Source of the DNA: a candidate division WOR-3 bacterium
GTDB lineage: Bacteria; Hydrothermota; UBA3073; JACQXS01; JAGMCI01
Direction: 5' to 3'
Assembly (NCBI GenBank): GCA_023129325.1
Contig: JAGMCI010000011.1
Location: 45,549 to 109,548, forward strand
DNA: 64,000 bases
Below, one piece after another: positions 786 through 59,887 of the stretch (position 1 is the first letter of the stretch; every line of letters begins with the position of its first letter). Both the position numbers and the translations under genes were made by a program. The notes beneath the pieces were generated by a model. That model was not told the DNA's origin, did no database searches, and saw nothing but the letters and a program-made list of their open reading frames with translations.

Positions 786-1940
786 AGGAAGAATTTTTTT
801 AAGGGTCTTTATGCCGCTCATTAAAGTAAAGAGTTCCTTCTTATATTCTTTATATCTTTGGAGTTCCTTTCCTTTTAAAGGTTTAATGGAAGGCGGATTT
901 AATTTAAGTGGATTTATCCACTTGCCATGTTTCTTTAATCTGAAATCAAGGTGAGGTCCTGTTGAAAGTCCTGTAGAACCAACATAACCTATTACCTTTC
1001 CCTGCTTTACATATTTTCCCTTCTTGATTCCTTTTCTAAATCTTGATAAATGTCCATAATATGATTTAAATCCTCTACTATGCCGAATAATCACCTGTCT
1101 ACCGAAACCTTTTCTCCATCCAACAAATGTCACTTTTCCATCGCCTATGGTCCTGATAGGTGTTCCTGTTGGAGCCGCATAATCTACTCCCAAATGAGGT
1201 CTCCGAATGCGTAATATGGGATGAAACCTTGAATAAGAAAATCTGGACGATACCCTTACATAGCTAAGCGGAGCTTTTAAAAACAGACGCTGTAAAGATT
1301 TTCCATCTAAACTGTAATATCCATGTCTTCCTTTGGGGTAATAAATGCCTGTGTATTTTTTATTTTTTTGCCACTCCTTTGGCAGGTAGGTAGCAAATAA
1401 TATCTTTCCATAGCCTATAAACCTATTCTCTATATACCTTGCAGTTGTGAAGATCTCAAATTTATCTCCATTTCTTGTTTCAACATTGAAGTCAATATCC
1501 CATGGGAACACTGTTTCGGCAAATTCATATACCAGTTTCGGAGTTCCGCCAATTGAGAGTAAAGCGTCCCATAATGAACCTTTTTCAATAGTTCCTTTTA
1601 AATAAATAAGAACTTTTCTTTCTTTTAATTTAGATACATTATTTAAACTATCAACAACCCAGGTAGCATGTGGCTGCTCATATTTAAGCTCAATAAATTT
1701 GCCCTCCCTCCCCGACGGCTGGCTAGCGGGTCTGGTAGTAATATATAATTTATCACCGGGTTTGCATTTTCTTAAATTTATTTTCTTGCCAAGAGCCGAG
1801 ACTACTTGAGCTGTGCTTTTCTTTGAGATTCCATTTGAGAGTAAAATTTCAGCTATATTCTCGCCTGATTTTAAAGTATGGGTCCGAGTAACTAATAAAA
1901 AGGAGACAAAAATCCAGAACATCTGGTTCAGTATACACAT
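762..1940 (-). CDS. M23 family peptidoglycan DD-endopeptidase (MepM/Csd3-like)
   Basis: HLGVDYAAP (HxxxD), YGHLS, STGPHLDF; carries in-frame palindromic insert RPASQPSGREG. Confidence 0.9.
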   Translation of the reverse strand: MCILNQMFWIFVSFLLVTRTHTLKSGENIAEILLSNGISKKSTAQVVSALGKKINLRKCKPGDKLYITTRPASQPSGREGKFIELKYEQPHATWVVDSLNNVSKLKERKVLIYLKGTIEKGSLWDALLSIGGTPKLVYEFAETVFPWDIDFNVETRNGDKFEIFTTARYIENRFIGYGKILFATYLPKEWQKNKKYTGIYYPKGRHGYYSLDGKSLQRLFLKAPLSYVRVSSRFSYSRFHPILRIRRPHLGVDYAAPTGTPIRTIGDGKVTFVGWRKGFGRQVIIRHSRGFKSYYGHLSRFRKGIKKGKYVKQGKVIGYVGSTGLSTGPHLDFRLKKHGKWINPLKLNPPSIKPLKGKELQRYKEYKKELFTLMSGIKTLKKILPLSAYFIK

Positions 1941-1983
1941 AATTTTTCATTTTGCAACCTTTTTCTTAATGAAATTATAAACG

Positions 1984-3519: not shown

Positions 3520-4599
3520 ATGCAGATTTTTTTACTTATAGTAGTTTTAAGTTTAATTAGATGGACACAAGCAAAGACATACCCAACTCTTATTGTTCGA
3601 GAGAGTCTTCCAAAGATAGAAGTTGAGCCATTCCATTTTTTCCCTTATCGGGGTATTTATTTGAATCATTATAGAGCTACAAGATTAAAAGAATATTTGC
3701 CTCATATTGACAAGACTGAGATAAATTGCATAGTAGTTGATTTTAAAGAAGCAAGAGGAATGGTAACTTATAATACTAATGTAGAATTTGCCAAAACTAT
3801 AGGTGCCAGAAAACCTTATATAAATCTTGAGCGTTTACTTTCTATGTGCAAATCTCATGGACTTAGACTTATCGGGAGGGTAGTGGTCTTTCAAGATTCT
3901 ATACTCGCCTGCTATAATGACGGTGAATATTCTATGAAGTCTCTTGATGGAAGAATCTGGAAAGATGGACATGGTAGGTGCTGGACAAATCCCTGTTTAA
4001 AAGAGGTTCAGAAATATAATATTGAGATTGCCAAAGACCTCACGAGGAGAGGTGTTCCTGAGATTCAATTTGATTACATTAGATTTCCATCAAAAACAGG
4101 CAGATTTAGACCTTATAAACTTGATTGTGAGGACAAAACAAAAGTTATCGCCAGTTTTCTAAAACTGGCAAGGCAAGAATTAAAGCCATTAGGAGCTACG
4201 ATTGCTGGTGATGTATATGGGTATGCACTCTGGTATCCTCTCAAGGGTGAAGGGCAAAATCTCAGGCTTATGGCAAAGTGGCTTGATATAATTAATCCAA
4301 TGCTTTATCCTTCGCATTTTCACAAACACCATGAAAAGTCATCTGGCCCAGGGAAAAGGGAGTATAACCTCATTTTTAAAAGCATAGTTAAAGGAGAAGC
4401 ACTTATTGGCGAATCCTTGTCCGCCTCAGGCGGAAAATTTGTTCCTTATATTCAGGGCTTTAATTTAAAGTCACCTAATTTTGGACCTGACTACATAGCC
4501 AACCAGATAGAAGCAGTCCGCAATTCTCGTGCCTGGGGCTACATAGTCTGGAATTCAAGAGGCAAATACAAACCCCTCTGGGAACTGCTTGAAAGATGA
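3520..4599 (+). CDS. Putative glycoside hydrolase (DUF4015/GH27-like TIM barrel)
   Basis: VVDFK, GRVVVFQD, EIQFDYIRFP, PMLYPSH motifs; N-terminal hydrophobic segment. Confidence 0.8.
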   Translation: MQIFLLIVVLSLIRWTQAKTYPTLIVRESLPKIEVEPFHFFPYRGIYLNHYRATRLKEYLPHIDKTEINCIVVDFKEARGMVTYNTNVEFAKTIGARKPYINLERLLSMCKSHGLRLIGRVVVFQDSILACYNDGEYSMKSLDGRIWKDGHGRCWTNPCLKEVQKYNIEIAKDLTRRGVPEIQFDYIRFPSKTGRFRPYKLDCEDKTKVIASFLKLARQELKPLGATIAGDVYGYALWYPLKGEGQNLRLMAKWLDIINPMLYPSHFHKHHEKSSGPGKREYNLIFKSIVKGEALIGESLSASGGKFVPYIQGFNLKSPNFGPDYIANQIEAVRNSRAWGYIVWNSRGKYKPLWELLER

Positions 4600-12793: not shown

Positions 12794-13905
12794 AGAACAT
12801 GGAAAAATATAAGATGGGTGAGAAGGTGTTAATGAAGGGTAATGAGGCACTTGCAGAGGGTGCCGTTAGGGCGGGTTGCAGGTTTTTTGCTGGCTATCCG
12901 ATTACACCACAAAATGAGATTCCAGAGTATCTATCTTGGCGTATCTTTGAAGTCGGTGGCACTTTCATACAATCTGAATCTGAGATTGCTGCTATCAATA
13001 TGATATTTGGCGTAGCGGCTTGTGGTGTTAGGGGGATGACATCCTCATCTGGCTGTGGCATAAGTTTAAAGCAAGAAGGCATCTCGTATATAGCTTCAGC
13101 AGAGCTGCCGTTCTTTTATGCAAACATAATCCGTGGTGGTCCGGGACTTGGCAATATTGCCCCAGCTCAAAGTGACTACTTTCAGGCAACTCGTGGTGGT
13201 GGGCATGGCGATTATCGGGTGATTGTTTTGGCGCCAAATTCGGTGACTGAGATGGGTAATTTCCCAAAGTTAGCTTACGACTTGGCAGATAAGTATAGGA
13301 ATCCGTGCATGGTACTTGCTGATGGATTGCTGGGGCAAATGATGGAGCCAATGGAATTTAACTTTGACTGGGTTGACCCAGATAAACTCCCGCCAAAGGA
13401 CTATATTGTGACAGGTTGTAAAGGTAGACCAAGGAGGATTATAAATACGCTTCATATGATACCAAGTATCCTTGAAAAGCACAACTGGCATTTGTATGAA
13501 AAATATCAAAGAATAGAAGAAAATGAAGTGCGGTTTGAGGGGTGCAACTTAGAAGATGCTGAAATTGTCATCGTAGCATATGGGACTTCAGCCCGTATTT
13601 CAACTGAAGCTGTGATAAAAGGTAGAAAAAAGGGTATAAAAGTTGGGCTCTTTAGGCCGATAACTTTATGGCCCTTTCCGAAGAAGGCTATTAATGAGCT
13701 TGCTGATAGAGTCAAGAAGCTTTTGGTAGTAGAAATGAATATGGGACAAATGGTTGAGGATGTGGAGATAGCTGTTTCTGGTAAATCTGCTATTCATTTC
13801 CTGGGTCGCCCTGGAGGTAGCTTACCAACAGGAGATGAAGTATTAGATAAAGTAGAAGAAATATTAAGCAAACCTGCTTCGCCGGAGCGAGAGCGAGGCA
13901 AGTAA
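12790..13905 (+). CDS. vorB: 2-oxoacid:ferredoxin oxidoreductase alpha subunit (VorB type)
   Basis: MKGNEALAEG, GYPITPQ, ESEIAA, RGGPGLG, VVEMNMGQM. Confidence 0.85.
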   Translation: MKNMEKYKMGEKVLMKGNEALAEGAVRAGCRFFAGYPITPQNEIPEYLSWRIFEVGGTFIQSESEIAAINMIFGVAACGVRGMTSSSGCGISLKQEGISYIASAELPFFYANIIRGGPGLGNIAPAQSDYFQATRGGGHGDYRVIVLAPNSVTEMGNFPKLAYDLADKYRNPCMVLADGLLGQMMEPMEFNFDWVDPDKLPPKDYIVTGCKGRPRRIINTLHMIPSILEKHNWHLYEKYQRIEENEVRFEGCNLEDAEIVIVAYGTSARISTEAVIKGRKKGIKVGLFRPITLWPFPKKAINELADRVKKLLVVEMNMGQMVEDVEIAVSGKSAIHFLGRPGGSLPTGDEVLDKVEEILSKPASPERERGK

Positions 13906-13906
13906 A

Positions 13907-15475: not shown

Positions 15476-15495
15476 TAATTAACAGGAGGAGAGAA

Positions 15496-16890
15496 ATGAA
15501 AGGAATGATTATGGGAAGCAAAAGATTATTAAGCTTTTTGTTGCTTGGATGCTTGGTTTTTGGCTTGTTTGTAAGTATAGGTTGTAAGAGTAAAGGTGGA
15601 TATCAGGATATTGCTCTTGTTAAGCAGGCGACAAGAGAAATCAGGAGAATAAGAAATGCACTTGAAGAATATAAATTGGATTATAGTTATTATCCATCCG
15701 AAGGAAGTGATTTAAAGGTTAGACTTGCTTCTTATTTATCCAAGTTCTCCTATCATGAGGACAAGATAGTGCGTGAGTATTCAGGAACTGTTCTCTCTGC
15801 GCAAAACACTCTTGACCAAATAATTAACATACTTTCTGGATGCGGGAGGATAAAAAATGAGCAAATTGAAGACAGATTTGCTAAGGTTCAGGAGAATCTT
15901 GAGCTTTACAAAGAAGAGCTTGAAGGAATTTCACATAAAATTCCATCAATAGTTGAAGATGTTAAAAAGATACAATCAGTTATTAATGACTTGAATCCTG
16001 AGAAATCAAAATCTTTAAAACAAGATTCTCTTATTAGTCTTGGAGATAGGATTGTAACTACTGTAGATTCACTGATTAAGGAGGTAACTGGCGAAGAGAA
16101 AACTCACTTACAAAATATAGGGAGTACTTTTGGTTGGTATAAGTTAAAGCTTCTTGGCAAGGAGCCCAAAAAGCCACCTGAGCTTTATTCTCCGGAGGGG
16201 GAGATTACCACTTTGAAAGGAGTAAGCAAAGATACTATATCTCTGTCCGAGGAATGGCAAATGGGAATACTTGAGCTTGAAGGGATGATAGAAAATTATC
16301 GGCAAATTGAGTCTTCAATAAATTATTGTGATTTCCTTATAGGAACTCAAAAAGATATTAACCGTGCCTTAAAACTTATTTCAAGTTTTCAAGAAAAGAG
16401 AGAGAAAGCTAAAAAGGCAGCTGTGATTGTGGAAGCACAAGCGAAGTTGTATCGTATGGCTGATGTTTTAAGAGATTATAGAAGAAAGAATTTAACATTC
16501 CCTGAACCAAATGTAAATACAGACTCCCTTTTTCATCCTTATTTTATAGAGACAACGATGAGTGGTGAGCAAATAGACCGCTGGGAAGCTACTTTATCTT
16601 GGTTTTCGTCCAGTCCAGTGTATAAGACTAAAGACCCAACTACAAGTTTTATGCTTGAGGCAAAAGTCAATAATAAAGAGCGCACTTCTCTCGCCTGTTG
16701 GGTTCAGGTTGAAAATCAGTGGGGCAAGATATTAAGTTCTTTTTCAAGTCCATTGATTTATACCACTCCGGATTCTCTTCGGACTTATTTTATAAAAGCA
16801 AGAGCAAAAGACAGTGGCAAAACTTGGATAACAGACCGTCCACCAATTGCCAAGACCCGTCTGCCGTCTGTCGGGCAGAAAGGAGGCTAA
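15496..16890 (+). CDS. Lipoprotein with two GspG/pilin-like segments
   Basis: SD AGGAGG then ATG 15496 (the ORF-track start overlaps the tRNA); lipobox SIGC; IRNALEEYKLDYSYYP and MADVLRDYRRKNLTFP. Confidence 0.6.
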   Translation: MKGMIMGSKRLLSFLLLGCLVFGLFVSIGCKSKGGYQDIALVKQATREIRRIRNALEEYKLDYSYYPSEGSDLKVRLASYLSKFSYHEDKIVREYSGTVLSAQNTLDQIINILSGCGRIKNEQIEDRFAKVQENLELYKEELEGISHKIPSIVEDVKKIQSVINDLNPEKSKSLKQDSLISLGDRIVTTVDSLIKEVTGEEKTHLQNIGSTFGWYKLKLLGKEPKKPPELYSPEGEITTLKGVSKDTISLSEEWQMGILELEGMIENYRQIESSINYCDFLIGTQKDINRALKLISSFQEKREKAKKAAVIVEAQAKLYRMADVLRDYRRKNLTFPEPNVNTDSLFHPYFIETTMSGEQIDRWEATLSWFSSSPVYKTKDPTTSFMLEAKVNNKERTSLACWVQVENQWGKILSSFSSPLIYTTPDSLRTYFIKARAKDSGKTWITDRPPIAKTRLPSVGQKGG

Positions 16891-18063
16891 ATGAGTAAAT
16901 CCTTATATCTTACCCGCCTGCTATTCGTCGGGCAGGTATCTGTTTTGTGTCTTATAATTAGTTGTGCACCACCACCCGGATTAGAGGAGAAACCAGAGGG
17001 CTCAAATGCCCAATTTAGCGAATCCAAAAAGCACTATAGTTTTTGTCGAGAGTATCTTAAAAATAAGATGTGGGATGATGCAATTAAGAATTGCGAACTT
17101 GCTGTTCAGGAAAGCACCTCTTATGTTGATGCTTATGTGGGACTTGGATTAGCTTATCGGGGAAAAAGGGAATATAATAAAATGGAAGAGACCTATGTTA
17201 AAATGATAGAAATTGCTCCACTTAAAGGTCATTATGCTTTAGGGCAACTTTATACTGAAGAAAGGAAATATGAAAAAGCTTTATCCCGTTATAAAGAAGC
17301 TCTGAAAGTAGATACAAGTTATGCTGATGCTTGGTATGGTATAGGGTATGTTTATGAAAAAAGAGGCGACCTCTCGACTGCTATTAAGAATTACAAACAT
17401 GCTTTAAAACTTGACCCTGAGAGTGAGAATATAAGATATAGTCTTGGAAAAGCATATATAGAGAGTGGAGAACATGAAAAGGGCATAGCCGAACTTAAAA
17501 TTTTAATTGCTACTTATCCAGAAGACTTGGATATCAGAGCCGCACTTGGAAAAGCTTATTTGTCCTTAAAAGATTATAATAAAGCCAAACAGGAATTTAG
17601 TTATATCATCCAGCAATCTCTAACTGATGTTACAAATAGGCTGAATTTTGGCATAACATGTGAGGGATTAAAGGATTATGAATCTGCTGTCCATATATAT
17701 AAAGAAGCCATTTCTATAGATACGACAAACATTTCTTCGTATTGTCATTTGATAAACCTTTACATAAAGTTGAAGGACCCGGCTAAAGCTCTTAAATATC
17801 TGAATAAAGCTCGCCAAATAAATCCGAAGAGCCAAATCCTTTACTGTCTTTTTGGAGATATTCATATTTTAAGCGGAGATAAGCTATTCAATAAAAAGGA
17901 ATTTGATGCCTCTATATCAAAATATAATAAAGCAATCAAAGAGTATAAGCTTGCTATTCAAGGGGAAGAAGCTGAATGGGTCTCTTATGCCCAAAAGGCT
18001 ATAAAAATGGCAAAGGCTAAAATTAAAAATGCAGAAGAAGAAGCCTTCTGGCACCGTAAATAA
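16891..18063 (+). CDS. TPR-repeat lipoprotein
   Basis: Lipobox IISC; many AYxxLGxxY TPR units. Confidence 0.85.
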   Translation: MSKSLYLTRLLFVGQVSVLCLIISCAPPPGLEEKPEGSNAQFSESKKHYSFCREYLKNKMWDDAIKNCELAVQESTSYVDAYVGLGLAYRGKREYNKMEETYVKMIEIAPLKGHYALGQLYTEERKYEKALSRYKEALKVDTSYADAWYGIGYVYEKRGDLSTAIKNYKHALKLDPESENIRYSLGKAYIESGEHEKGIAELKILIATYPEDLDIRAALGKAYLSLKDYNKAKQEFSYIIQQSLTDVTNRLNFGITCEGLKDYESAVHIYKEAISIDTTNISSYCHLINLYIKLKDPAKALKYLNKARQINPKSQILYCLFGDIHILSGDKLFNKKEFDASISKYNKAIKEYKLAIQGEEAEWVSYAQKAIKMAKAKIKNAEEEAFWHRK

Positions 18064-23723: not shown

Positions 23724-24686
23724 TTAAAATTTTGGTTTTAAAACATTATTTTTAAGATTTTTAAACTTTAACCCTTGAAAAAAATTTCTTCTTGTAAGTT
23801 CTTGTTCAATGCGAGAGACAATTTCGCTTTTTGTAAGATTCCATTTTGGTGCAATTAGCATATCGTCTTCAAGAACCTCACCTACGAGTCGTTGAATAGT
23901 AATATTTGGCGGAAGCAGTTCAATTATATCAGAGACAAGCGGTATATACTCTTCAATAGAAAGAGTTTTGAATTCTTTCTTTTCAAAATCTTTTGCAAGG
24001 TTTGTACTTTTAATTACTTGAAGATGATGGATTTTAATTCCATCTATATCCATTTTTGCTAATGTTTTTACTGTTTCAAGCATATCCTTTTTTGTCTCAT
24101 CAGGCAAACCAAGAATAATGTGAACACAAATAAAGATATTTCTGTTCCGAGTTCTTTTAATTGCATCTTTAAATTGGGCAAAGTTATGTCCACGATTGAT
24201 TCTTAATAGTGTTTTATTATGTATTGATTGCAACCCATACTCAAGCCATACCTGACATTTTTTTGCGTAACTCTCAATAAGGTCAAGCACCTCATCAGGC
24301 ACGCAATCTGGCCTTGTGCCAATACAGAGTCCAACAATATCAGGGTCAAGTAGAGCTTCATCATAAACTTTTTTTAAAAATTTTACATCAGCATAAGTAT
24401 TTGTATAGGGTTGAAAGTAAGCAAGAAATTTTGTGCTTTTTCTCTCAAGTAATTTCTTTCCATATTGTATCTGGTCATAAACACTTGTCTTTGTTCTTCC
24501 TGTCTGCCGATAGGCAAGAAATGTTGGCAAACTAAAACTTTGAGCATTACAGTAAGTACAGCCACTATACCCTAATGTTCCGTCTCTTGTAGGGCAGGTA
24601 AAACCAGCGTCTATAGGTATTTTGTAAACCTTGAATCCAAATTTATCTTTCAAAAACTGACTAAATGAATAATATCTTTGGTTCAT
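23724..24686 (-). CDS. YhcC/TIGR01212-type radical SAM protein
   Basis: DAGFTCPTRDG...GCTYC, YFQPYTNTY, GTRPDC, EYGLQS. Confidence 0.9.
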   Translation of the reverse strand: MNQRYYSFSQFLKDKFGFKVYKIPIDAGFTCPTRDGTLGYSGCTYCNAQSFSLPTFLAYRQTGRTKTSVYDQIQYGKKLLERKSTKFLAYFQPYTNTYADVKFLKKVYDEALLDPDIVGLCIGTRPDCVPDEVLDLIESYAKKCQVWLEYGLQSIHNKTLLRINRGHNFAQFKDAIKRTRNRNIFICVHIILGLPDETKKDMLETVKTLAKMDIDGIKIHHLQVIKSTNLAKDFEKKEFKTLSIEEYIPLVSDIIELLPPNITIQRLVGEVLEDDMLIAPKWNLTKSEIVSRIEQELTRRNFFQGLKFKNLKNNVLKPKF

Positions 24687-42100: not shown

Positions 42101-42866
42101 CCCAACAACTGCCACAACCACCCTGGCTTTTAACTTCTGTCATCCAATTTTGGCCGTCTTTGTCCCGCCAGTCAAGAGATGAAGGGAAAAGCTTCCCGGT
42201 TTTGGGATATTTCAATTCTTGGGGAGAAACATCAGATGGAGGTAATAAACCAAGTAATTTTTGTCTATCTTTATCTGATAACATAAAGATTGGATTAAGC
42301 CCTGCTGCCCATTGGGCACCAGTAGCAAGTATGTTTTCTCTAATTTTTCTTAACTCATTGAACCTCTTGAACACAAAGTCCCGTAGGTTTTCATCAATGT
42401 TAGCTTCGCCTATGTAATTGAATATATCCTCTGCTTGAGAAGTATTATATACAAATTTATTTGCCTGACTTACTCTAATAGTATCTTTAGCAGAAATACC
42501 TTCTATGAAAATAGATATTTCAAATTCGCCCCGTAAGGCCTTTAGTCTCTTGCGGGGTTCATCTAATTCTTTTAACATATCTAATAATTTGGAAGCATTT
42601 ATGATAACCTCACCCTCACGAATATCATCAGGAGATAACCTGTCTAAATATTTATCCTCTATATAGATACATCCTATCGGATTATTTAGCAGTTCCCGTC
42701 TGCCAGATGTCGGGCAGGGAGACTGAAATGATATCCTTGTGGTTTCCTGTTTCGCCGAGAGGGTGATTTCTGCATTTAAGAGGTTTGCAAAAAGAATACC
42801 TATAAATAGTGTTAAGGAAAGTCTTATTATTTTATATTTTGTAATTTGAGCAAATAGATTATTTAT
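39108..42866 (-). CDS. Secreted C1A papain-like cysteine protease with Ig-like modules and FlgD-Ig/T9SS-like C-terminal domain
   Basis: QGGCGSCWAF, NHAIVFVGW, IKNSWG; QNVPNPF...GIYF tail; frame open for 96 codons upstream of 42578 to an ATA behind AGGAGGT, adding a signal peptide. Confidence 0.85.
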   Translation of the reverse strand: MNNLFAQITKYKIIRLSLTLFIGILFANLLNAEITLSAKQETTRISFQSPCPTSGRRELLNNPIGCIYIEDKYLDRLSPDDIREGEVIINASKLLDMLKELDEPRKRLKALRGEFEISIFIEGISAKDTIRVSQANKFVYNTSQAEDIFNYIGEANIDENLRDFVFKRFNELRKIRENILATGAQWAAGLNPIFMLSDKDRQKLLGLLPPSDVSPQELKYPKTGKLFPSSLDWRDKDGQNWMTEVKSQGGCGSCWAFAAVGHIEALINVAENDTSIDLDLAEQTLVTDCCTWCGSCNGGWHDAGLHYTRDTGIPLESCDPYTASNGPCDRCLDWQSQARKITSYNQVTGGWYNENDIKNALINHPLSTTVWVDNGWWSYSGGIYSYTPSPDEILNHAIVFVGWNDDSTYWIIKNSWGKWWGENGYMRIEKGKCNLGYYTYNAEYAPLFVDAGNDTSIYYGDTITLDPTVTNGAPNYAESPPGYTYLWSSEFDLPDSNIKNPKVSPPITTTYTLKASDLNVSKSDSVKVTVLEGCYVACFNPLIDDDSIGASSGNGDGIVNEGEIIEMSLWVKNYGTNTAHNVEGKISTTDTFITVIDSLETFGTIEPGDSLKTPPYIFEVDSVAPDSHLVTFNLTCQDILGSIWVSNFNILVRHFSTISGRATDATGLGIPDAIVICTGPSFGIDTTDVCGYYTIVNLPGGAYTLIASASEFLNSNPVYASVPPDTEIDFVLRAPDIKVLPESLQAVLKVNDTTSQIIIINNFGNDTLEFRITESNLPATGDNKYGSGGPDSASYSWIDSDELGGPTYDWIDITKTGTEIIGLGDDSNIGPLPIGFTFPFYGNEFTSFRFCTNGWVSFTSTAAHFNNTTLPNTSAPFNLLAPFWDDLDFSAGGNAYYYSDEDKLIVEYYNVSQASGEGPYTFEIILAADGVITYQYQLMRTLTCLPRSDKRSGTEPAKQVDKATLGIQNEDGTIGLQVAYNTPYVHDNLVIKISKDKMKWLSEDPISGTIPPEDSIDILISYDASGLTLDSTYYAWLKINSNDPDEPIVSVPVTLTTTSQGETPVIDSINPQSPCTTQIDSSILLTVYAHAPNPEDSLTYKWSIDTTASGSTYLYSSHEKTVDTVKVIVSDGILNDSTQWIIIVETGIEEKPPSLPRVFAIHQNVPNPFTKTTEIRYQIPDLRQKNITVSLKIYDITGTLIRTLVNESQKPNYYKVIWNGHNEIGKRVPAGIYFYRMKAGNFIQIKKAIRIK

Positions 42867-45925: not shown

Positions 45926-47299
45926 CTATCCTGTTAAAACATCTTCCTTCGGAAGTTTGAATGTTTCAGGTCTGGCTCTTTGAATAATAGCTGTCCCTAT
46001 AGTTATAGAGCCTATTCTTCCTATAAGCATTGTTAGAATAATTATAAATTTCCCAAGTCCTGTAAAATCGTGAGAAAGACTGCAAGCAGGGTTGATTTTT
46101 GACCCCATTGAAAGCCCGACCGTGCCAAAGGCTGAAATTTCTTCAAAAACAATGTTAATGAAACTTTTCCCTGTCTCTGTTAAAGTAAGTACTATTATCC
46201 CAATGACCAAGAAAAGAACACTGATAAATACAATCATAAAAGCTCTATCTATAATTGCTCTATCAACTCTTCGGTTAAAAGCTGAAATATTTTTTCTGCC
46301 CCGAAAATAGGCTATCATACTTATAAAAATAAGAGTGATAGTTGTCGTTTTTACCCCTCCTCCTGTTCCCCCAGGCGATGCGCCGATAAACATAAGAATT
46401 GAAGTAAAGAATTTTGTCCCAAGTTTAAATTTACTAACCGGGACAACCTGGAAGCCAGCAGTTCTTGGCGTGCTTGCTTGAAAAAAAGCATTTGAGAGTT
46501 TATGCCCGATGCTCATATTTTTCAAAACGCCATTCCACTCCATTGTGAGAATCCCAATAGTTCCAACACAGAGTAGAATGAGAGTGGCACATAAGACCAA
46601 TTTTGTATGTAAACTTAAGAAGGTAAGTTTCTTCTTTCCCGCCTGCCAAAACGAAGTGGCGGGCAGGAATCGCCAGTGTAATTCATTTACAACTATAAAT
46701 CCCAGACCTCCAATAATAAAAAGTCCACTCACAGTAAAAATAAGCAATGGGTCTTTTGAAAATCTAATAAGACTATCAGAGAAAAGCGAAAATCCTGCAT
46801 TGCAGAATCCACTTATTGAGTGAAATATGCCATTAAAAAAGGCATTTGCTAAAGTAAAACCAAGTCTTGAAAAATGAAGTGTTAATATGACAGTTCCTAA
46901 TAATTCAACTCCAAATGTAAGTTTAACAGCTTGTAATATAAGTTGTTTCATTTCTCCAGATGAGTATCCCATAGCTTCAGAAGTCACGGTGGCTTGTCTT
47001 ATGGATAGTCTTTTCCTGATAAATAGAAAAAGCAAACTTGCCAAAGTCATATATCCCAGCCCTCCAAGCTGTATCAGGAAAAGAATAATTCCTTTCCCAA
47101 ATCTTGTAAAGTCATGAGGAGTATCCTTAACAATCAGTCCTGTGACACACACAGCTGATGTAGATGTAAAAGCACTGTCTATAATTGAACATTTCTCAGA
47201 AGTTGAGGCGACAGGAAGAGAAAGGAGTAAAGTTCCAATAAGTATTATAATTATATAACCTAATAAAATAGCTCTCTGGGGGGTAAAAAGCTTTCGCAT
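45926..47299 (-). CDS. trkH: Trk/Ktr potassium uptake membrane subunit (TrkH/KtrB)
   Basis: SAVCVTGL, SGFCNAGF, RTAGF, SAFGTVGLS. Confidence 0.85.
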   Translation of the reverse strand: MRKLFTPQRAILLGYIIIILIGTLLLSLPVASTSEKCSIIDSAFTSTSAVCVTGLIVKDTPHDFTRFGKGIILFLIQLGGLGYMTLASLLFLFIRKRLSIRQATVTSEAMGYSSGEMKQLILQAVKLTFGVELLGTVILTLHFSRLGFTLANAFFNGIFHSISGFCNAGFSLFSDSLIRFSKDPLLIFTVSGLFIIGGLGFIVVNELHWRFLPATSFWQAGKKKLTFLSLHTKLVLCATLILLCVGTIGILTMEWNGVLKNMSIGHKLSNAFFQASTPRTAGFQVVPVSKFKLGTKFFTSILMFIGASPGGTGGGVKTTTITLIFISMIAYFRGRKNISAFNRRVDRAIIDRAFMIVFISVLFLVIGIIVLTLTETGKSFINIVFEEISAFGTVGLSMGSKINPACSLSHDFTGLGKFIIILTMLIGRIGSITIGTAIIQRARPETFKLPKEDVLTG

Positions 47300-48468: not shown

Positions 48469-49488
48469 GTGATGAAATATAAAGAGGCTGGTGTTGATAT
48501 AGAAAAGGGCGACACCTTTAAAAAATATATTAAAAAGCTAAGTAATGTTATTGGAGGCTTTGGGGGGACTTTTGAGATTCCAAAAGGCTACAAACATCCT
48601 CTCCTTGTTTCCTCAGTGGATAGTGTGGGCACAAAGCTTAAAATTGCAATGCAACTCGGAATCCATAATACAGTTGGTAAAGATATAGTCAATCATTGCG
48701 TAAATGATATTTTAACCCTTGGCGCCAAGCCTTTATATTTTATGGATTATATAGGAACTGGAAAGTTAAATTTAGAACAGCAAAAAGAAGTAATAAATGG
48801 AATTGTAGATGCTTGCAAAGAAAACGATATTTTGCTGCTTGGTGGCGAGACAGCTGAATTACCAGGACTTTACAATCTTGAAGAATACGATTTAGTTGGC
48901 TTTATTACTGGAATAGTAGAAAAAAATAATTTAATAGATGGAAGTAAGATAATGCCAGGCGATAAACTCATCGGCCTTCCTTCAAACGGACTTCATACTA
49001 ATGGGTATTCACTTGTCCGAAAGATTATAAAGGATAAAGGTCTATCACTTAATCTTAAAATTCCAGAACTTGGTTCTGGACTTGGCGAAGAGCTTTTGAA
49101 AATCCACAGGTCTTATAAGGACTTGCTCACTCCCTTCCTTGACAAAGTAAAAGGACTTATTCACATAACAGGTGGTGGATTTTATGGAAATGTGCCAAGA
49201 ATTTTGCCAAAAGGGTTGGGAGCTAAAATTTATAAAGACTCATGGGACATCCCACCTATATTTAAATTTATTCAGCATGAAGGAGAAGTTGAAGAAAGAG
49301 AAATGTTTGAAGTTTTTAATATGGGAATAGGAATGATTGTGATTGTGGATGACTTTGAAGTACTCTCTGGGATTTGTGCCATAAGCACATCCCTGCCCGA
49401 TGGACGGCAGGCGGGCACCTTTGGTGGAAAGGAAAAAATATCATTTATAGGAGAAATTAAGAGGGGAGAAAGAGTAGAAATTATTTGA
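48469..49488 (+). CDS. purM: Phosphoribosylformylglycinamidine cyclo-ligase
   Basis: YKEAGVDI, GGETAELPG, SNGLHTNGYSL, HITGGG, FNMGIG. Confidence 0.95.
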   Translation: MMKYKEAGVDIEKGDTFKKYIKKLSNVIGGFGGTFEIPKGYKHPLLVSSVDSVGTKLKIAMQLGIHNTVGKDIVNHCVNDILTLGAKPLYFMDYIGTGKLNLEQQKEVINGIVDACKENDILLLGGETAELPGLYNLEEYDLVGFITGIVEKNNLIDGSKIMPGDKLIGLPSNGLHTNGYSLVRKIIKDKGLSLNLKIPELGSGLGEELLKIHRSYKDLLTPFLDKVKGLIHITGGGFYGNVPRILPKGLGAKIYKDSWDIPPIFKFIQHEGEVEEREMFEVFNMGIGMIVIVDDFEVLSGICAISTSLPDGRQAGTFGGKEKISFIGEIKRGERVEII

Positions 49489-50823: not shown

Positions 50824-52131
50824 TCATAGAGCTAAGAGTTCGCCGATAAGATATAAGGAACCTGTAGCTAAAATTAAATCATCGGGTTGAGCGCGCTGGC
50901 GTGCAAGGTGAAAAGCACTTTCTGTATTTTGTGTAATTTGGACTTGCACCTTTTTTTGTTTAAAAAGTTGAAAAATATCTTCTGGATTTGCTGAGCGTTC
51001 TGATTTAAGAGATGTTACATAAGTATAGTCAGTAATTGGTGATAATACTTGAATTATTCCTTCTTTATCTTTATCCTTCAAAACTCCAAAAATAAGTATT
51101 AAGTGCCTGAAATTAAATAATTCAATAATAGCCCTTCGCAATACCCATGCAGAAGCAACATTATGTGCTCCGTCAAATACAATCCACGGGTTTTTGTTAA
51201 TAATTTCTAATCTACCCGATGATTTAACTTCACGAAGCCCCTCTTTTATAAGAGTATCTGGAATATTGCAAACCCGAGCTGTGCAAATTGAAGTGAGTGC
51301 ATTTATTATTTGATGTCTGCCTAAAAGGGGAAGCTCGTATCTCTTCACACTTCCTACTTCCCACTTCCTACTTCTCGGTGAAGCAGGTGATATTTTGAAT
51401 CTTGAACCCGTTAGGTCACACTCTATATCTTCACAAAAAAGGTCTTCTCCAATAACTTGAAGAGTTGTCTTTTTATCTTGGCAAGCTTTTTTAATTACTT
51501 CTAAAACTTCTGGAGCCTGGGGACTTGATATAACCTGCCCACCTTCTTTTATTATGCCACACTTTTCATTAGCTATTGAGGTTAAAGTATGACCAAGAAT
51601 TTTTGTATGGTCAAAACTTATTGGAGTTAGAATTGAGACCTCTGGGGTCAAAACATTTGTAGCATCAAGTCTCCCTCCAAGTCCAACTTCAAAGATAGAA
51701 AAATCTGTCTTTTCTCTTGCAAAATAAGTAAAAGCAAGGGAAGTAAGAATCTCGTATGTTGAACATTCACTGGTGAGGTACGGTTTCATTTTTTCAAGAA
51801 GCTGAACAAAATCAGATTCAGGGATAGGCTGGTCATTTATTTTTATTCTCTCACGGATATTTACAAGATGTGGCGAAGTGAAAGTCCCTGTTTTCCCAAC
51901 TTTCTTAAATATTGAAGACAAAATATGTGCCGTAGAACCTTTGCCTTTGGTGCCTGCTATTAAGATAGGTCTCTTAAGTTGAGAATGAGGATAGTCAATT
52001 TTTTTGAGAAATTTATGGAATGAAGAAAGATTAAATTCATAGCGTCTTCCCCTTTCCCAATCTTTAAAACTGTATATAAATTCTAAAGCCTTTTTAAAAT
52101 CCACTCCGTGGTGAAGGTCGTGGTGAACCAT
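50824..52131 (-). CDS. folC: Folylpolyglutamate synthase / dihydrofolate synthase
   Basis: AGTKGKGST, TSPHL, EVGLGGRLDATN, DGAHN, TGSLYL; N-terminal insert VHHDLHHGV. Confidence 0.95.
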   Translation of the reverse strand: MVHHDLHHGVDFKKALEFIYSFKDWERGRRYEFNLSSFHKFLKKIDYPHSQLKRPILIAGTKGKGSTAHILSSIFKKVGKTGTFTSPHLVNIRERIKINDQPIPESDFVQLLEKMKPYLTSECSTYEILTSLAFTYFAREKTDFSIFEVGLGGRLDATNVLTPEVSILTPISFDHTKILGHTLTSIANEKCGIIKEGGQVISSPQAPEVLEVIKKACQDKKTTLQVIGEDLFCEDIECDLTGSRFKISPASPRSRKWEVGSVKRYELPLLGRHQIINALTSICTARVCNIPDTLIKEGLREVKSSGRLEIINKNPWIVFDGAHNVASAWVLRRAIIELFNFRHLILIFGVLKDKDKEGIIQVLSPITDYTYVTSLKSERSANPEDIFQLFKQKKVQVQITQNTESAFHLARQRAQPDDLILATGSLYLIGELLAL

Positions 52132-52208: not shown

Positions 52209-53927
52209 CTATCGTTGGTTAATGGATTCTATAAATCCTCCATCTCTAAAATCAATAATAGAGTAAACCTCTTTCTCAATAGTCGGAGTGATTATTTCAA
52301 GATTCTTATCCTCATCTATATTTTTAAATTCGGGTTGTCCTGTATAAGTTTCTATTTCTTTTGATAAAGAATAAATTTGAGCATAAACCCCATTTTGAAC
52401 TTCGTATATTATAATTCTTTTGCCATTAAGCTGAACAGCTTCATTGGTCAAGCCATTTCCATTAACATCTCTTAATCCTATACTGGGTATCTCACTGGGG
52501 ATAATAGAAGTTTTTGCTATCCACATAATTTCATTAACTAAAGTTTTCAATTTTTCTTTAATGATTTCAGCATCTTTTTTCCCGTCAGCTGAGGGATTAA
52601 ATAATCCGACCCTAATTCTATACCATCCTTCATCTGAGGGACCAAATTTAGAAACCCAGGCAGGATAATAAGCAAGACGCAAAAATTCTGCCAACTGCTC
52701 GGCATTACTGTAATTACGGCTTGAGCCAACTTGAATTGTAAAAAATGAAGTCTTTGTAAAAATCCGTTGTTTAACAGACTCAGCTGATGGCCTATCAGCT
52801 AATGGGTAAGGTTTTTTTGCTTTTATGATAATCTTTTTACCACCTTTTATCTTTAGACGAGCTTGGACTTTAAAGCCATTGGAATTTATTACTATTAATT
52901 CATCTGGAGTAAGATAATACACTCTCGAATCACCAAAACTTGTCACCAAATCGCTTAATTTCAGAAATAATGTATCCGTTAGCTGGCAAATTAGTTCATC
53001 TGTTCCTGTATCAAAGAAACTAACTTTGTTTTCTTCTACAATAATACCATAGCTACCATCTCTGGATAAGAATAACTTTTTACCTTTTCTTATGGGTAAT
53101 CTTTTTTCAACCCGATTAGTTACCCTTTTTATCACATAAAGTTCATTTGAGGTAAGACAATACAATTTATTGCTACCGGGTGTGAACTTGAGAACAATCG
53201 GAGTTCCATTAATCTTTATACTTGTCATAAGAGCAAATGTCTGTGTATCAAAGACATCAATTAATCCGCCTGAAGCGGAAGACCTGCCAATGTATAATCT
53301 GAGTCCGTAGGGAGCAATGGCAAAGTCTGTTATATTAGATAAAGGAATTTGTGCCTCTTTTTCAAAATCAATAAGCTTATAAATATATAAACCACTCTTA
53401 TTAAGTACCCATATACGATTAAAATCAATAACAAATTTTGTAACACTTTCTTTAAGTTGAATTGTCCTTTTACCAAGGAGTTCAGAAATCTTATTAGGTG
53501 TCAGAACATAAATATTCTCTCCTTTCTTTATCACTTTTTCACAATTCTTTGGCAAATCACATACCCTTTTGAAATCTCCTTCTCGCCTCGCTGAGGCTCT
53601 CGCCTCGCTGAAGCTTCGGCGAAGCGGGTCGGCGAGGCGGGGCACCAACTGAAATAAGGCTTCACCTGCTATCCAGAGCGTGTCTTTTGATAGTCCAATT
53701 TGCTTTATTCTATCAGCTAACAGAGAAGGAAGTTTGAACTTGTTTAAAATTGAATCCTTCTCAAGATTAATTGTATAAACATCATTCTCTGTAAAGACAT
53801 AGCCAATAGATTTACCAAGCTCTTCCTCTCTTACCGGCAATTTTTGAGTTTTAGTAGTTTTCCGTTTACATCCACCAAAGCCGATTAAGAGTCCAATTAA
53901 CAGAAAAATACCAAAATATCTAATCAT
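52209..53927 (-). CDS. Lipoprotein with YVTN-like beta-propeller and SPOR domain
   Basis: Lipobox FGGC; FTIQVGSS...WYRIRVGLF SPOR motif; in-frame inserts. Confidence 0.7.
   Translation of the reverse strand: MIRYFGIFLLIGLLIGFGGCKRKTTKTQKLPVREEELGKSIGYVFTENDVYTINLEKDSILNKFKLPSLLADRIKQIGLSKDTLWIAGEALFQLVPRLADPLRRSFSEARASARREGDFKRVCDLPKNCEKVIKKGENIYVLTPNKISELLGKRTIQLKESVTKFVIDFNRIWVLNKSGLYIYKLIDFEKEAQIPLSNITDFAIAPYGLRLYIGRSSASGGLIDVFDTQTFALMTSIKINGTPIVLKFTPGSNKLYCLTSNELYVIKRVTNRVEKRLPIRKGKKLFLSRDGSYGIIVEENKVSFFDTGTDELICQLTDTLFLKLSDLVTSFGDSRVYYLTPDELIVINSNGFKVQARLKIKGGKKIIIKAKKPYPLADRPSAESVKQRIFTKTSFFTIQVGSSRNYSNAEQLAEFLRLAYYPAWVSKFGPSDEGWYRIRVGLFNPSADGKKDAEIIKEKLKTLVNEIMWIAKTSIIPSEIPSIGLRDVNGNGLTNEAVQLNGKRIIIYEVQNGVYAQIYSLSKEIETYTGQPEFKNIDEDKNLEIITPTIEKEVYSIIDFRDGGFIESINQR
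53582..53641. mobile_element. 30-nt palindromic element inserted into a second copy of itself, in frame
   Basis: CTCGCCTCGCTGAGGCT-[CTCGCCTCGCTGAAGCTTCGGCGAAGCGGG]-TCGGCGAGGCGGG. Confidence 0.8.
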
Positions 53928-54641: not shown

Positions 54642-55336
54642 AATTCCTCCCTTTTACATTTTGAGATTTGCATTTTAAATTTATATGTCCTTTCTCTTAA
54701 ATTTGCCTGCCCGCCGTCTTTTAACTCTGACAGGCGGGGATGATTAAATAAATCTCCTGCTACACAAATACCATCTGCTCCAGCATTCAAAACTTTGTCA
54801 ATCTTATCAAGAGTTATACCACCAATCCCAAGAATTTGTAGGGGCGTATTGCTATACGCCCCTATCACTTTTTTAATCTCAGAAATAAGAGATAATTTAA
54901 CAAGAGGTTTAGATTTTGTAGAGGATGGAAATAAACAACCTACAGCTACATAATTAGCCCCAGATTTAACTGCCTCAAGTGCCTGATTGACAGAATTTAC
55001 ACTTGTTCCAATTATCTTGTTTCCTAAAATCTTCCTGGCGTGGGAGGGAGGCATATCAGATTCACCAAGATGTACTCCATCTGCTTGAGTTGCTAAAGCT
55101 ACATCTGCTCTATCATTCACAATAAATGGGACCTTGAACTTTCCCGTTGCTCGCCAGATTGCGGTTCTAACTGTTAATGCATCTTGAAGAAAAGCCCTCG
55201 TATCCTGGGTTTTCTCGCGAAGTTGAATTACCGTGGCTCCTCCAAGGACTAAATCCTCTACAATTTTAGTTAAATTTCTTGATTCACGACTTATATACTT
55301 CTCATCCAATATGACATATAAACTAAAGTCTATCAT
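54623..55336 (-). CDS. thiE: Thiamine-phosphate synthase
   Basis: IQLREK, IVNDRAD, GVHLG, FPSSTK, GIGGI. Confidence 0.9.
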   Translation of the reverse strand: MIDFSLYVILDEKYISRESRNLTKIVEDLVLGGATVIQLREKTQDTRAFLQDALTVRTAIWRATGKFKVPFIVNDRADVALATQADGVHLGESDMPPSHARKILGNKIIGTSVNSVNQALEAVKSGANYVAVGCLFPSSTKSKPLVKLSLISEIKKVIGAYSNTPLQILGIGGITLDKIDKVLNAGADGICVAGDLFNHPRLSELKDGGQANLRERTYKFKMQISKCKREELWQDFQ

Positions 55337-55353: not shown

Positions 55354-55857
55354 TTATCTGTGTTTACCTGCCCGCCGCTTTGCTTTGGCAGGCGGGTCTG
55401 CGGTTAAAACTTTAAGTAATGTTTTCTCAAGGTCATAAATCTTAAATCTTATTTCCTTAACTTGAGACGAGATTTTGGCACTAAATAATTTGCTAAATTC
55501 TTCTATTGCCCGACACCCCTCTTGAGCCCTTCTTAGATTTCTTTGGACAATCTCTTTTAAATCTTTATAAGAATGAGTATCAAAGTTACCATATTTCCCT
55601 AAATCCTTTCCTGTATCCCTGAATTCAATGAGATTAGAATTGGCAAAGAGACTACTTAATTTATGCCTTTCAGTTTTTATCTCTTTGGTCAACTTTTTAT
55701 CCTTAAGTATAAATCTTGCAACCTCCTCAACAATTCTTAAGCCTTCTCTTGCCCTGTTCAAGTTAGCATCAATGATTTGAAGAACCTCCCCGCCTTGACT
55801 CGCAACAGGCGAGGCAGGTAAGTTGAACTTTTCTTGGTGGAGAGATATATTTTTCAT
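55354..55857 (-). CDS. ThiD2-type domain (stand-alone N-terminal domain of long ThiE proteins)
   Basis: IIDANLNRAREGLRIVEE...RDT..DLG...N..RAQEG.R.IEE...RF.IY. Confidence 0.8.
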   Translation of the reverse strand: MKNISLHQEKFNLPASPVASQGGEVLQIIDANLNRAREGLRIVEEVARFILKDKKLTKEIKTERHKLSSLFANSNLIEFRDTGKDLGKYGNFDTHSYKDLKEIVQRNLRRAQEGCRAIEEFSKLFSAKISSQVKEIRFKIYDLEKTLLKVLTADPPAKAKRRAGKHR

Positions 55858-59000: not shown

Positions 59001-59887
59001 CACCAGTAGTATTTATCCCGGATACAAGTTTTAATGAAGATGATTCACTAATGCTTTATCTAAATGATTATGTTAGTGATGTGGATAATCCTCTTGATAG
59101 TCTTATATGGAGCTGTTCGGGAAATGATACTATTATTGTAGACATAGACCCTGTAACACATTGGGCAACCTTCTCTGCTCCAAAAAACTGGCGCGGCAGT
59201 GAACTACTTATATTTATGGTTGATGATGCTACCTCAAAGGCAACCACCACAGACTCAGCCACAATTACAGTTATATCTGTCAATGACCTACCTGTAATTG
59301 ATAGTTCTGCTCCAGAGTCGCCCTGTTCTACTTTTGTGGATTCAATTCTTTTATTTTATGTATTTGCTCATGATGTGGATGTAACTGACACATTAGCTTA
59401 TGACTGGATTATTAATGGGACTCTTGATACGACAACTTATACTGGAATTTATTCCTATTCAAGTTCAGAAGAGACAGTGGATACAATGAAAGTCAGGGTA
59501 AGTGATGGAGTATTGGGAGATTCAGTTATGTGGATAGTAACTGTCAAATCTATAGGTGTAGAAGCTGAAAGCCCTCAAGTACCTAATGATTTTTCTCTTT
59601 CACAAAACTGTCCAAATCCATTTATGCAAACAACTGAAATTAGATATGCGATTCCAGAGGATGTACAAGTAGAGATTGCTATTTACAATATACTGGGACA
59701 AAAAGTTATGACGCTGATAAACCGTAATCAAAAAGCTGGTTATTATGCAATAAAATGGAGTGGCATAGATGATTCTGGGGAAAGGGTAGCAAGCGGTATT
59801 TATTTTTACAGAATCAAAGCCCACCCAACGGATGGCGGGCAAGCAGAAAAATATACAGCAACTAAGAAAATGTATCGGATGAGGTAA
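56087..59887 (+). CDS. Gingipain-like C25 cysteine peptidase with propeptide, tandem cadherin-like repeats and FlgD-Ig/T9SS-like tail
   Basis: Signal peptide; YLLFLGD, GRLSV, HRDHG (His), SINC (Cys), LGDP; repeated NDAP...EDD units; SQNCPNPF...SGIYFY. Confidence 0.9.
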   Translation: MKKCILSFFSILFVSMPLFAPTIKVASSTANNLIVGVSLPEVEFTKREYQDGNIYSSLKVHGSGIWKIGNPEIPCFGKWILVPNGASAHINTYPGKPVIYKDIDLPPVQPPQPDLKNAPPQYFTRNEQIYNEDKDYPWKFALIEPLKKMRGQSCTILWILPYQYNPVKKTLKVYPDLRVNVDFSGPIKPIPSNLKSKNYEKKILGMALNAREVLNAQENVKDSKRDNNSKTNGCELLIITHDDFESAANTLADWKMKTGLITKVAKTSIIGDTTVDIEAYIDSAVSNWSPAPEYLLFLGDAEYVPTWYKNFHPYPSQGPTGTDIFYADIDNPADYVADLGYGRLSVDTPEQADSLVARIIRYEKIANSNSYYSNTTMAGCFQDGAYGDPPDSVANRRFAKTSEDVRNYLNIQGFMTQRIYATYNGYDYTEIFPKYWSTYYVFENDTSGVEIPADLQKPTFPWNGSTADVSNAVNNGTFFLLHRDHGGRSGWGEPYFRKWDVDALNNGEKRPIVWSINCNTGWFDNETDSVGCGTDFSDECFAEHWLRHNTGGSCGLIAATRVSYSGINDRLVWGWMDAIWPGFLTWCNNPYGGSERIYRIGDVLNYGKEYMRTKYYFDDYIRTALEEFHWLGDPTMIIWTGIPEIMAVSYPSTVSIGSGSLTVYVETTPKGTPIDSAWVCVMKGDEVYERGLTDASGNVILSISSSTIGTLWVTTIGENYIPDEGSALVVCYGDVSPDSVINPTDTVFVDSIYLPGVYVKNMGTDTIQAFDVTCTIDTSGVKGYSDIQPVSNLAGGDSVIVTFSGWTVPFARKSYTITFFASGTFLVDTNPSNDTLVSTVYEYNDAPLVSGLPDTSFSEDDTLYINLNNYVFDSDDPDSSLNWNYSIYETKNKSGVSLKASLPASRDKGLSLPRYSKNSPLYVDIDLTAHIATITADPDWSGSRNIVFTAEDPWGLSDSDTMILTVKSVNDAPVVFIPDTSFNEDDSLMLYLNDYVSDVDNPLDSLIWSCSGNDTIIVDIDPVTHWATFSAPKNWRGSELLIFMVDDATSKATTTDSATITVISVNDLPVIDSSAPESPCSTFVDSILLFYVFAHDVDVTDTLAYDWIINGTLDTTTYTGIYSYSSSEETVDTMKVRVSDGVLGDSVMWIVTVKSIGVEAESPQVPNDFSLSQNCPNPFMQTTEIRYAIPEDVQVEIAIYNILGQKVMTLINRNQKAGYYAIKWSGIDDSGERVASGIYFYRIKAHPTDGGQAEKYTATKKMYRMR

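Follow-up and report, generated by a model that had tools for sequence, protein, structure and literature searches.

The window examined here is a 64,000-nucleotide (nt) stretch of a candidate division WOR-3 genome (G000:C3:45549-109548, on contig JAGMCI010000011.1; G000 denotes the host genome, and G001-G009 and further such numbers denote related genomes), in which genes are interrupted by short hairpin-forming repeats. The host genome comes from cold-seep metagenomes and is a 2,018,063-bp bin of 57 contigs, with a GC content of 36.3% and a completeness of 89%. The window is AT-rich, with 31-43% GC per 2 kb, and contains 69 short GC-rich islands, defined by at least 11 G+C per 14 nt. A first-pass annotation had placed such islands, as palindromic elements, at listed positions inside many protein-coding genes, and GC-rich islands were indeed found at those positions. 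The names that it gave to the host genes were confirmed by Pfam matches, which included M23, DUF4015, POR, POTRA/Omp85, radical SAM, ARMT1/DUF89, CbiA with Fer4, the sigma-54 activator, C1 and C25 peptidases, TrkH, Mur ligase, SPOR, TMP-TENI and ThiD2, while the insert site that it had assigned to a ferredoxin was not located. The sole RNA gene of the window is a tRNA-Ala at 15402-15476, with no further RNA gene above the Rfam threshold, and no transposase-like gene turned up within the window.

The orthologous DNA of related genomes, which were G001 (the nearest relative, from the same family), G005, G002, G003, G004 and others, was compared with the window as aligned proteins, and the resulting inserts are collected in Table 1. 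The data showed that, of the pattern-defined elements located in host genes with an orthologue, 25 of 29 (in 21 genes) coincide with an orthologue gap of at least 2 amino acids (aa), and that outside the window 14 of the 16 tested elements do so. The four exceptions were two MinD loops, where the relative has an insert of its own, one 1-aa gap, and one B-like 15-mer without a length difference. As proposed in the first-pass annotation, the extra peptides map onto the elements in these alignments. Among its 28 sites, with the BamA-like protein counted as five, 24 match a gap of 3-28 aa in at least one orthologue and the one at 26614 does so in part, while the one at 42695, which had been assigned to a protease, is intergenic. 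The insert in FolC, which had been listed with the palindromic ones, does contribute an extra peptide, but it is a hexamer-repeat array with no palindrome. The weaker cases of insertion are those at 13873 and 55367, which lie at C-termini, and at 37490, which lies in a variable linker.

Table 1. Inserts and related hairpins in the window, with their counterparts in orthologous proteins (letters and R numbers are repeat families; z is from single-stranded DNA folding)
Location	Position	Strand	Element	Comparison and remarks
M23 peptidase	1710..1733	-	24-nt GC-rich insert (RPASQPSG)	8-aa gap in G001
DUF4015 hydrolase	4417..4434	+	B 15-mer TCCGCCTCAGGCGGA + 3 nt (LSASGG); z -3.7	clean 18-nt insert relative to G001
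POR/VorB subunit, C-terminus	13873..13895	+	D-like GC island	4-aa gap relative to G001, flanks unconserved
ORF 15382-16890, end	16855..16878	+	family A 24-mer (TRLPSVGQ)	8-aa gap in G001
TPR lipoprotein, signal peptide	16913..16936	+	family A 24-mer, pattern match	in-frame reading; N-terminus not alignable
BamA-like protein	19074..19100	+	27-nt A-like insert	9-aa gap in G001
BamA-like protein	19308..19391	+	84-nt composite hairpin; z -2.2	28-aa gap in G001
BamA-like protein	19746..19775	+	GTAG REP R2 (GTAGCGCAGGGG..CCCCCGC)	10-aa gap in G001; type flanks RAYT at G000:C18
BamA-like protein	19929..19937	+	9-nt GC insert (SGG)	3-aa gap in G001
BamA-like protein	20145..20189	+	45-nt family A composite	15-aa gap in G001, conserved flanks
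Radical SAM (YhcC-like)	24499..24523	-	GC hairpin	7-aa gap in 5/5 aligned orthologues
ARMT1/DUF89	25019..25048	-	30-nt insert with 26-nt perfect palindrome; z -5.1	10-aa gap in G001
MinD-like ATPase 1	26614..26628	-	B-like 15-mer	+2 aa only, with substitutions, relative to G001 and G005 (partial)
MinD-like ATPase 1	26842..26877	-	TGTC-tagged REP (T)	12-aa gap in G005; different insert in same loop in G001
MinD-like ATPase 2	30761..30802	-	GTAG REP R3 (GTAGCCGAACCCTTTAGGGTTCGC)	14-aa gap in G001; identical REP flanks RAYT at G000:C56
Intergenic	35891..35949	.	REP doublet R6	same doublet in frame inside RAYT gene at G000:C37
Sigma-54 activator, linker	37480..37510	-	R6 REP	~6 extra aa relative to G004 orthologue (70% identity), variable linker
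C1 peptidase	39989..40040	-	D2 hairpin; z -2.9	17-aa gap in 2/2 aligned relatives
Intergenic	42695..42718	.	family A 24-mer	between ORFs 39108-42578 and 42917-45073
TrkH	46637..46666	-	family A 30-mer (LPATSFWQAG)	10-aa gap in G001
PurM	49375..49428	+	54-nt triple hairpin (A 24-mer between two small hairpins)	18-aa gap
FolC	51346..51384	-	39-nt ACTTCC-type hexamer-repeat insert, non-palindromic	13-aa gap in G001 and G005
SPOR protein	52580..52600	-	C-like palindrome	4-aa gap in 2/2 orthologues covering site
SPOR protein	53265..53279	-	B-like 15-mer	4-aa gap in 3/3 orthologues
SPOR protein	53582..53649	-	family D composite	20-aa gap in 2/2 orthologues covering site
ThiE	54704..54736	-	family A 33-mer	11-aa gap in G001, conserved flanks
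ThiE	54838..54865	-	R5 REP (GTAGGGGCGTAT..ATACGCCCCTA)	6-aa gap in G001 and G005; net +18 nt for 28-nt palindrome
ThiD2, C-terminal tail	55365..55404	-	family A 30-mer	11-aa terminal gap in G001
ThiD2	55785..55848	-	GC-rich composite	20-aa gap in G001, 4-aa gap in G005
C25 peptidase, near C-terminus	59819..59843	+	A-like GC island	reads in frame; no usable orthologue

At six sites (4417, 16855, 20145, 25019, 49375 and 54704) the insert has exactly the length of the element and is bordered by conserved flanks, with no flank duplicated. Across 56 PurM orthologues drawn from many phyla, the 12 columns at the centre of the insert are empty throughout. The element sites are not shared with the relatives, in which ThiD2 and ThiE carry GC-rich hairpin inserts of their own at other sites. 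The two MinD-like loops that hold REPs contain unrelated inserts in relatives, which are a CTCAATT-type repeat in G001 (L019) and a 23-aa stretch in G005 (L030), and the same loops were hit independently in three lineages. These comparisons show the copies inside genes as insertions relative to orthologues, in which the reading frame is kept.

The first-pass annotation had named an assembly artefact as one of the findings that would speak against the inserts, and they were present in further assemblies. Logan's assembly of the probable source run, a second assembly of the same data, contains two contigs (16,650 and 5,259 nt) that match positions 13000-32103 with 0 and 1 differences. A second study (P2) provides low-depth contigs that run uninterrupted across the elements at 19322-19606, 24848-25274, 26388-26635 and 30741-31003, and one of these contigs lacks 3 nt, in frame, in the loop of the hairpin at 25021. 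Apparent joints between distant positions, such as 19770 to 30761, were rejected as cross-matches between REP copies. Contigs from this same study, an independent cold-seep one (X2 and X3; depth 2-4.7), carry 12 extra nt, also in frame, at window positions 25684-25687, which turn GGAAGCTTAA into a family-C palindrome inside an Ala_racemase_N-type open reading frame (ORF; 25567-26223), where the window has none. This 12-nt difference aligns best as two added arms that flank an AGC which the empty site already contains. The 12-nt variant, the relatives' own inserts in ThiD2 and ThiE, and the independent inserts in the MinD loops are signs of ongoing change.

The same kinds of hairpins are dispersed over the whole genome. 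When 17 hand-written hairpin patterns were counted genome-wide, with the overlapping families B and B' merged, 712 distinct elements were found (15.3 kb in total), with units of 15-54 nt belonging to at least 17 families, in agreement with the multi-family system proposed earlier. The 24-mer pattern CCCGYCTGCC-N4-RTCGGGCAGG gave 6 matches at 5 window loci with at most 2 mismatches, while none was expected from 100 dinucleotide-preserving shuffles. In the genome CCCGCCTGCC has 72 copies, compared with 0.28 expected from base composition and 1 for a backwards control pattern; GTCGGGCAGG has 69 and GCGAAGCGGG 73 copies; the exact family B 15-mer TCCGCCTSAGGCGGA occurs 67 times (control 0), and TCCGTCAGCTGACGGA has 35 exact copies. 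A greedy seed search of the genome returned 40 repeat families with at least 18 copies, which are of three kinds: hairpins, ACTTCC-type hexamer arrays, and arrays of 7-9-nt units that are nearly all intergenic.

Within the hairpin families the stems are well conserved and the loops variable, and family-specific sequence is maintained across 60-120 copies. Folding of 10 window elements as single-stranded DNA gave hairpins with z scores from -1.4 to -5.1. The elements are modular, as illustrated by the PurM insert, which consists of three hairpins in tandem, a triple that recurs elsewhere in the genome. Several families resemble repetitive extragenic palindromes (REPs): R1, R1b, R2, R3, R5 and R6 begin with GTAG and R4 with GGAG, while family T (49 copies) has the form TGTC-ATGCTGAA(C)-TTGT-TTCAGCAT-CTC. 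Family A, whose canonical forms measure 24 and 30 nt and which has a further 33-nt form, is free of stop codons in all six frames, and family B has a stop in one of the six frames only. Nested copies were noticed by eye in the loops of E2 (three), of R3 (two) and of a family A 30-mer (one), which is anecdotal. Targeting of the loops of larger hairpins by family A was considered and rejected, with exact 6-7-bp flanking stems in 2 of 88 copies, the same as in a shuffled-partner control. Families B and E3 are found at the tips of longer stems more often (13/119 and 7/42) than in controls (about 0.02).

To place the elements relative to genes, plain ORFs of at least 70 aa were picked greedily (n = 1780, covering 90.7% of the genome). 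Outside these ORFs lie 345 of the 712 elements; 24 are in ORFs of 70-119 aa, 58 in the first tenth of longer ORFs, where the true start is possibly downstream, and 285 inside ORFs of at least 120 aa beyond the first tenth, affecting 212 of 1563 such ORFs. The intragenic share is therefore 40-52% (285-367 of 712), compared with 90.7% coding sequence, which indicates strong depletion from genes. Families D2 and R5, with 26/30 and 25/27 copies in ORFs, are near the share of 0.907 expected from random placement. The elements are present in both orientations and in all open frames, and the host genes are unrelated in function as judged by Pfam.

The elements that remain within genes bear the marks of a selective filter. 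A length that is a multiple of three was found for 64 of 65 family A copies in ORFs, compared with 19 of 25 outside, and the 20- and 32-nt variants are nearly confined to the outside; this test is informative for family A only, as the other patterns are of fixed length. Among B 15-mers, those with a TSA (TCA/TGA) loop lie in ORFs of at least 120 aa in 35 of 67 cases, compared with 5 of 34 for the same stem with the stop-prone TWA (TAA/TTA) loop. The 35 intragenic B copies are read as S-A-S-G-G (21), PP(E/Q)A (8) or RLRR (6), and the linker-like first reading dominates among five open combinations of frame and orientation. The earlier description of a frame-preserving system holds in that the inserts do keep the frame, but the preservation is mostly a survivorship effect, with the exception of family A, which tends to be 3n long even outside genes.

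The position of an insert in a folded protein was examined for PurM. An AlphaFold2 model, based on an alignment of 57 sequences, had a mean predicted local distance difference test score (pLDDT) of 92 and a predicted template modelling score (pTM) of 0.90, and its sole low-confidence stretch is the insert (pLDDT 57 for residues 301-310 and 49 for residues 311-320). The insert is without regular secondary structure and is located between a helix (296-299) and a strand (324-332), which shows it, within the limits of a model, as a disordered surface loop. Other inserts are found in a signal peptide, C-terminal tails, a domain linker, and loops that have independent inserts in relatives.

The first-pass annotation had stated that no mobilising enzyme is in the window. 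None turned up there, but five loci for REP-associated tyrosine transposases (RAYTs) were found elsewhere in the genome, called by NF047646 (cut-off 80 bits) or by PF01797 with the HUH and Tyr motifs. Three of them score above the NF047646 cut-off: the RAYT on contig C36 (143.9), which adjoins the REP GTAGGCAC..., that on C22 (112.8), which adjoins doublets of GGAGTGCAAAA..., and that on C18 (96), which adjoins GTAGCGCSGGGG..., the R2 type also found in the BamA-like gene at 19746. The RAYT on C56 (75.6, below the cut-off) adjoins GTAGCCGAACCC..., the R3 type found in MinD at 30762; it has an in-frame TGA, and its last motif is apparently in another frame. The RAYT on C37, with split hits, has the R5 REP GTAGGGGCGTAT... 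on its 3' side only, directly after the gene. Each RAYT adjoins its own dispersed REP family, and the marks of a REP/RAYT system, which are the gene, the flanking REP and the GTAG tag, were found for R1-R6; the RAYT-flanking motifs have 15-81 dispersed copies each. The RAYT-like gene on C37 (G000:C37:21243-21800, minus strand) contains an in-frame 63-nt R6 REP doublet between the HxH and Tyr motifs, so that a candidate transposase is itself host to an element of its presumed substrate type. In the phylum, RAYT matches were obtained in 24 of the 31 genomes searched. Those in G005:C38, G002:C136, G022:C11 and G003:C4 lie in open frames of 833-1287 aa, and may be fusions or RAYT domains within very long ORFs.

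The repeats are also present in relatives, at very different copy numbers. In six of them CCCGCCTGCC has 13-19 copies (control 0-3), compared with 3 in G001 and the 72 in the host. The exact B 15-mer, with its 67 host copies, occurs 57, 51 and 85 times in three genomes of genus g4, which belongs to another family of the same order, and 0-5 times elsewhere, with 3 copies in the nearest relative. The density of GC islands of at least 20 nt is 0.38 per kb in the host window, 0.12 in G001, 0.19 in G005 and 0.38 in G008, and 400 kb of G008 sequence contain 15 B copies, 9 of which are inside ORFs. Because of this distribution, including the copies within ORFs of G008, the phenomenon is ascribed to the order, with bursts specific to individual lineages.

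These data are best explained, with a probability that we put at about 0.7, by one genome-wide population of REP-like selfish hairpin micro-repeats that copy into new sites, genes included. The five RAYT (HUH/Y1) transposases, all of them adjoining their own REP families, would act in trans to move the GTAG-tagged families R1-R6, and transposition would proceed on single-stranded DNA without target duplication. Insertion could occur anywhere, after which selection would purge frame shifts, stop codons and hits in structured parts of proteins. The expected survivors are 3n-long, stop-free elements encoding peptides rich in Gly, Ala, Ser, Pro and Arg, located in loops, linkers, signal peptides and termini. 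The untagged GC-rich families A, B, C, D and E behave in the same way, and might be moved by the same RAYTs or by another agent.

Several observations weigh against this explanation. The consensus sequences of families A-E lack GTAG, and none of these families flanks any of the five RAYT genes. The number of RAYTs does not track the abundance of family B, as G006 has 0 RAYT hits and 51 B copies, and in the host the C56 RAYT is apparently disrupted and the C37 RAYT carries the REP doublet. Neither a target motif nor a target duplication was found at the insertion sites. The net gain is sometimes smaller than the element (+18 nt for the 28-nt R5 palindrome, +12 for B at 53265 and +6 for B at 26614), where part of the target seems to have been replaced, and one B-like copy is without any length change; simple insertion does not account for these sites. 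No empty-site allele was seen for any window insert among the contigs, in which rare variants are not visible. As PurM of the nearest relative G001 is just 79% identical, the boundaries of inserts at the nucleotide level are uncertain. Finally, because an excess of elements (74/428) lies in the first tenth of ORFs and the gene calls are plain ORFs, some of the copies counted as intragenic are suggested to lie upstream of the true start.

The untagged families, and especially A (24/30/33 nt) and B (15 nt), may instead be a separate class of gene-dwelling selfish DNA with a non-RAYT mover, exchanged between the lineages of the order. Their unit lengths are multiples of three, they have few or no stop codons in the six frames, and the identical 15-mer is abundant in another family but rare in the nearest relative. 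This class would then be adapted to persist in coding sequence, and not just survive in it, and would be a steady source of new protein loops, but we regard it as rather unlikely. The lack of an enzyme associated with families A-E would fit a spread without any transposase, in which stable GC-rich hairpin oligonucleotides or short stretches of other copies are pasted during break repair, template switching or short-patch gene conversion and are then subject to selection. CGTC-type REPs of other bacteria are also without a dedicated transposase, as far as the available text of PMC3733652 describes them. This explanation stays alive because of the short net gains, which differ from the element length with the target partly replaced (R5 in ThiE, B in SPOR and MinD), and because of the 12-nt strain difference, with its two arms around the existing AGC. 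On the other hand, it does not easily account for the inserts that have exactly the element length between conserved flanks, for family-specific sequence kept over 60-120 copies, or for the cognate RAYTs of the GTAG families, and the abundance of an identical 15-mer in two families of the order, with its rarity in the nearest relative, looks like dynamics of its own. We therefore consider a repair or conversion origin unlikely.

The conserved stems and variable loops, together with the near-random genic shares of D2 and R5, could also suggest that the host keeps the repeats as DNA or RNA signals, which might bind proteins, stabilise mRNA, cause pausing or act as uptake-type sequences, with their genic presence selected. 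The overall depletion from genes, the occurrence in both orientations and all open frames, the functionally unrelated host genes, and sites that are not shared with relatives all argue against this, and make it very improbable. The fragmented and incomplete state of the metagenome bin could raise the concern of artefacts of assembly, binning or adapters, but the Logan contigs (although of the same data), the second-study contigs that cover four element regions without gaps, and the long ORFs that stay open through all inserts leave this explanation hardly credible.

The pairing of terminal inverted repeats of a parent insertion sequence with a target-site duplication was not found for the elements: there is no duplication at the clean sites, and a self-comparison of all ORFs revealed no multi-copy transposase gene in this metagenome bin, from which insertion sequences may be missing. 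Eleven genes for GxxExxY proteins (TIGR04256 / PDDEXK_3) were considered as mobilisers of the hairpins and were dropped, because the number of such genes in relatives does not track how abundant family B is. They include G000:C2:28707-29090, C2:52861-53244, C4:107566-107949 and G000:C3:13666-14013, the last being outside the window, and their copy number in 30 relatives is 0-15. Arrays of 7-9-nt units border 10 of the 11 genes on both sides and are seemingly inverted (for example, ACGCAGAT upstream and ATCTGCGT downstream), and similar arrays that lack a gene rank with the most frequent intergenic repeats. The GxxExxY genes and their arrays could form a separate gene-plus-array unit. The hexamer arrays of the ACTTCC/ACTTCT type also sit in frame within genes, as in FolC; their seed AAGTGGGAAGT occurs 110 times, in 72 cases within ORFs, and examples are found at window positions 51346-51384 and at G000:C2:53964-54107.

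In the window, the ORF called from 15382 overlaps the tRNA-Ala gene, and because of this overlap an apparent 17-aa insert at 15382-15561 is regarded as an artefact of ORF calling; a Met at 15511 opens a stretch resembling a signal peptide and is probably the real start. The C1 (papain-type, 39108-42578) and C25 (gingipain-type, 56087-59887) peptidases are large secreted proteins with type IX secretion tails of the FlgD_ig/CHU_C type, and dozens of paralogues of their C-terminal domain exist in this genome and its relatives.

These observations extend selfish DNA inside protein-coding genes beyond obligate intracellular bacteria, and at a higher density, with at least 212 of 1563 larger ORFs affected, and they tie the phenomenon directly to canonical REP/RAYT pairs. 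The inserts amount to a natural experiment, repeated hundreds of times, that shows which loops of proteins accept 5-28 additional residues, and the genome offers a test bed for the movement of REPs, above all of the hairpin families without a transposase. They also carry a practical warning, as the inserts break homology matches (those of PurM ended at the insert) and can mislead gene callers. Among open-access papers and preprints, no paper on this lineage was found, nor any genome with so large a genic share of so many hairpin families. The first-pass annotation had pointed to Rickettsia palindromic elements (RPEs) as the known precedent, of which RPE-1 is roughly 100-150 bp long.

That precedent holds, but a closer one is provided by the short intragenic REPs of the GTAG and CGTC super-families, some copies of which lie in ORFs, including Rickettsia RPE-4 and RPE-6 (Di Nocera et al. 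2013, PMC3733652). Going by the available text of that paper, the likeness lies in short tagged stem-loops, several families per genome, RAYTs flanked by their own REPs, and extra peptides. Family T fits the CGTC layout given there, with a CGTC/TGTC tag, an 8-9-bp stem starting from AT, a 4-5-nt loop and a short tail, while families A-E do not. The same text describes most REPs as intergenic and the intragenic ones as a minority, whereas here 40-52% of the 712 copies lie in ORFs, and the commonest families (A, B, C and E) are untagged and as short as 15 nt. The repeats also resemble the REPIN/RAYT systems of Pseudomonas and enterobacteria, which, in the portions available of PMC3116915 and PMC3337134, comprise non-autonomous hairpins, often as inverted doublets, with single-copy RAYTs; the doublet at 35891-35949 is comparable. 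Unlike REPINs, which are described there as extragenic, both single hairpins and doublets are found here inside genes, even in a RAYT gene. Short hairpins that lie in part within protein-coding genes are known as well from mitochondria, as the repetitive elements of sponges (PMC2800124) and the coding palindromes of Nematomorpha (PMC6649704), but those, as presented in the accessible parts of these papers, are organellar, unrelated in sequence and without a RAYT.

With the RPEs the repeats share their behaviour only, which is that of palindromic repeats present in frame in coding as well as in non-coding DNA. According to the part of PMC1166351 available, 85 of the 728 RPEs of Rickettsia felis lie in ORFs, which is a share of about 12%, compared with 40-52% here, and Rickettsia is an obligate intracellular parasite, while the present host comes from cold-seep metagenomes. 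Because intragenic REPs and RPEs have already been published (PMC3733652; PMC1166351), the phenomenon is a more extreme form of a known one, and can be viewed as a free-living version of the Rickettsia palindromic elements.

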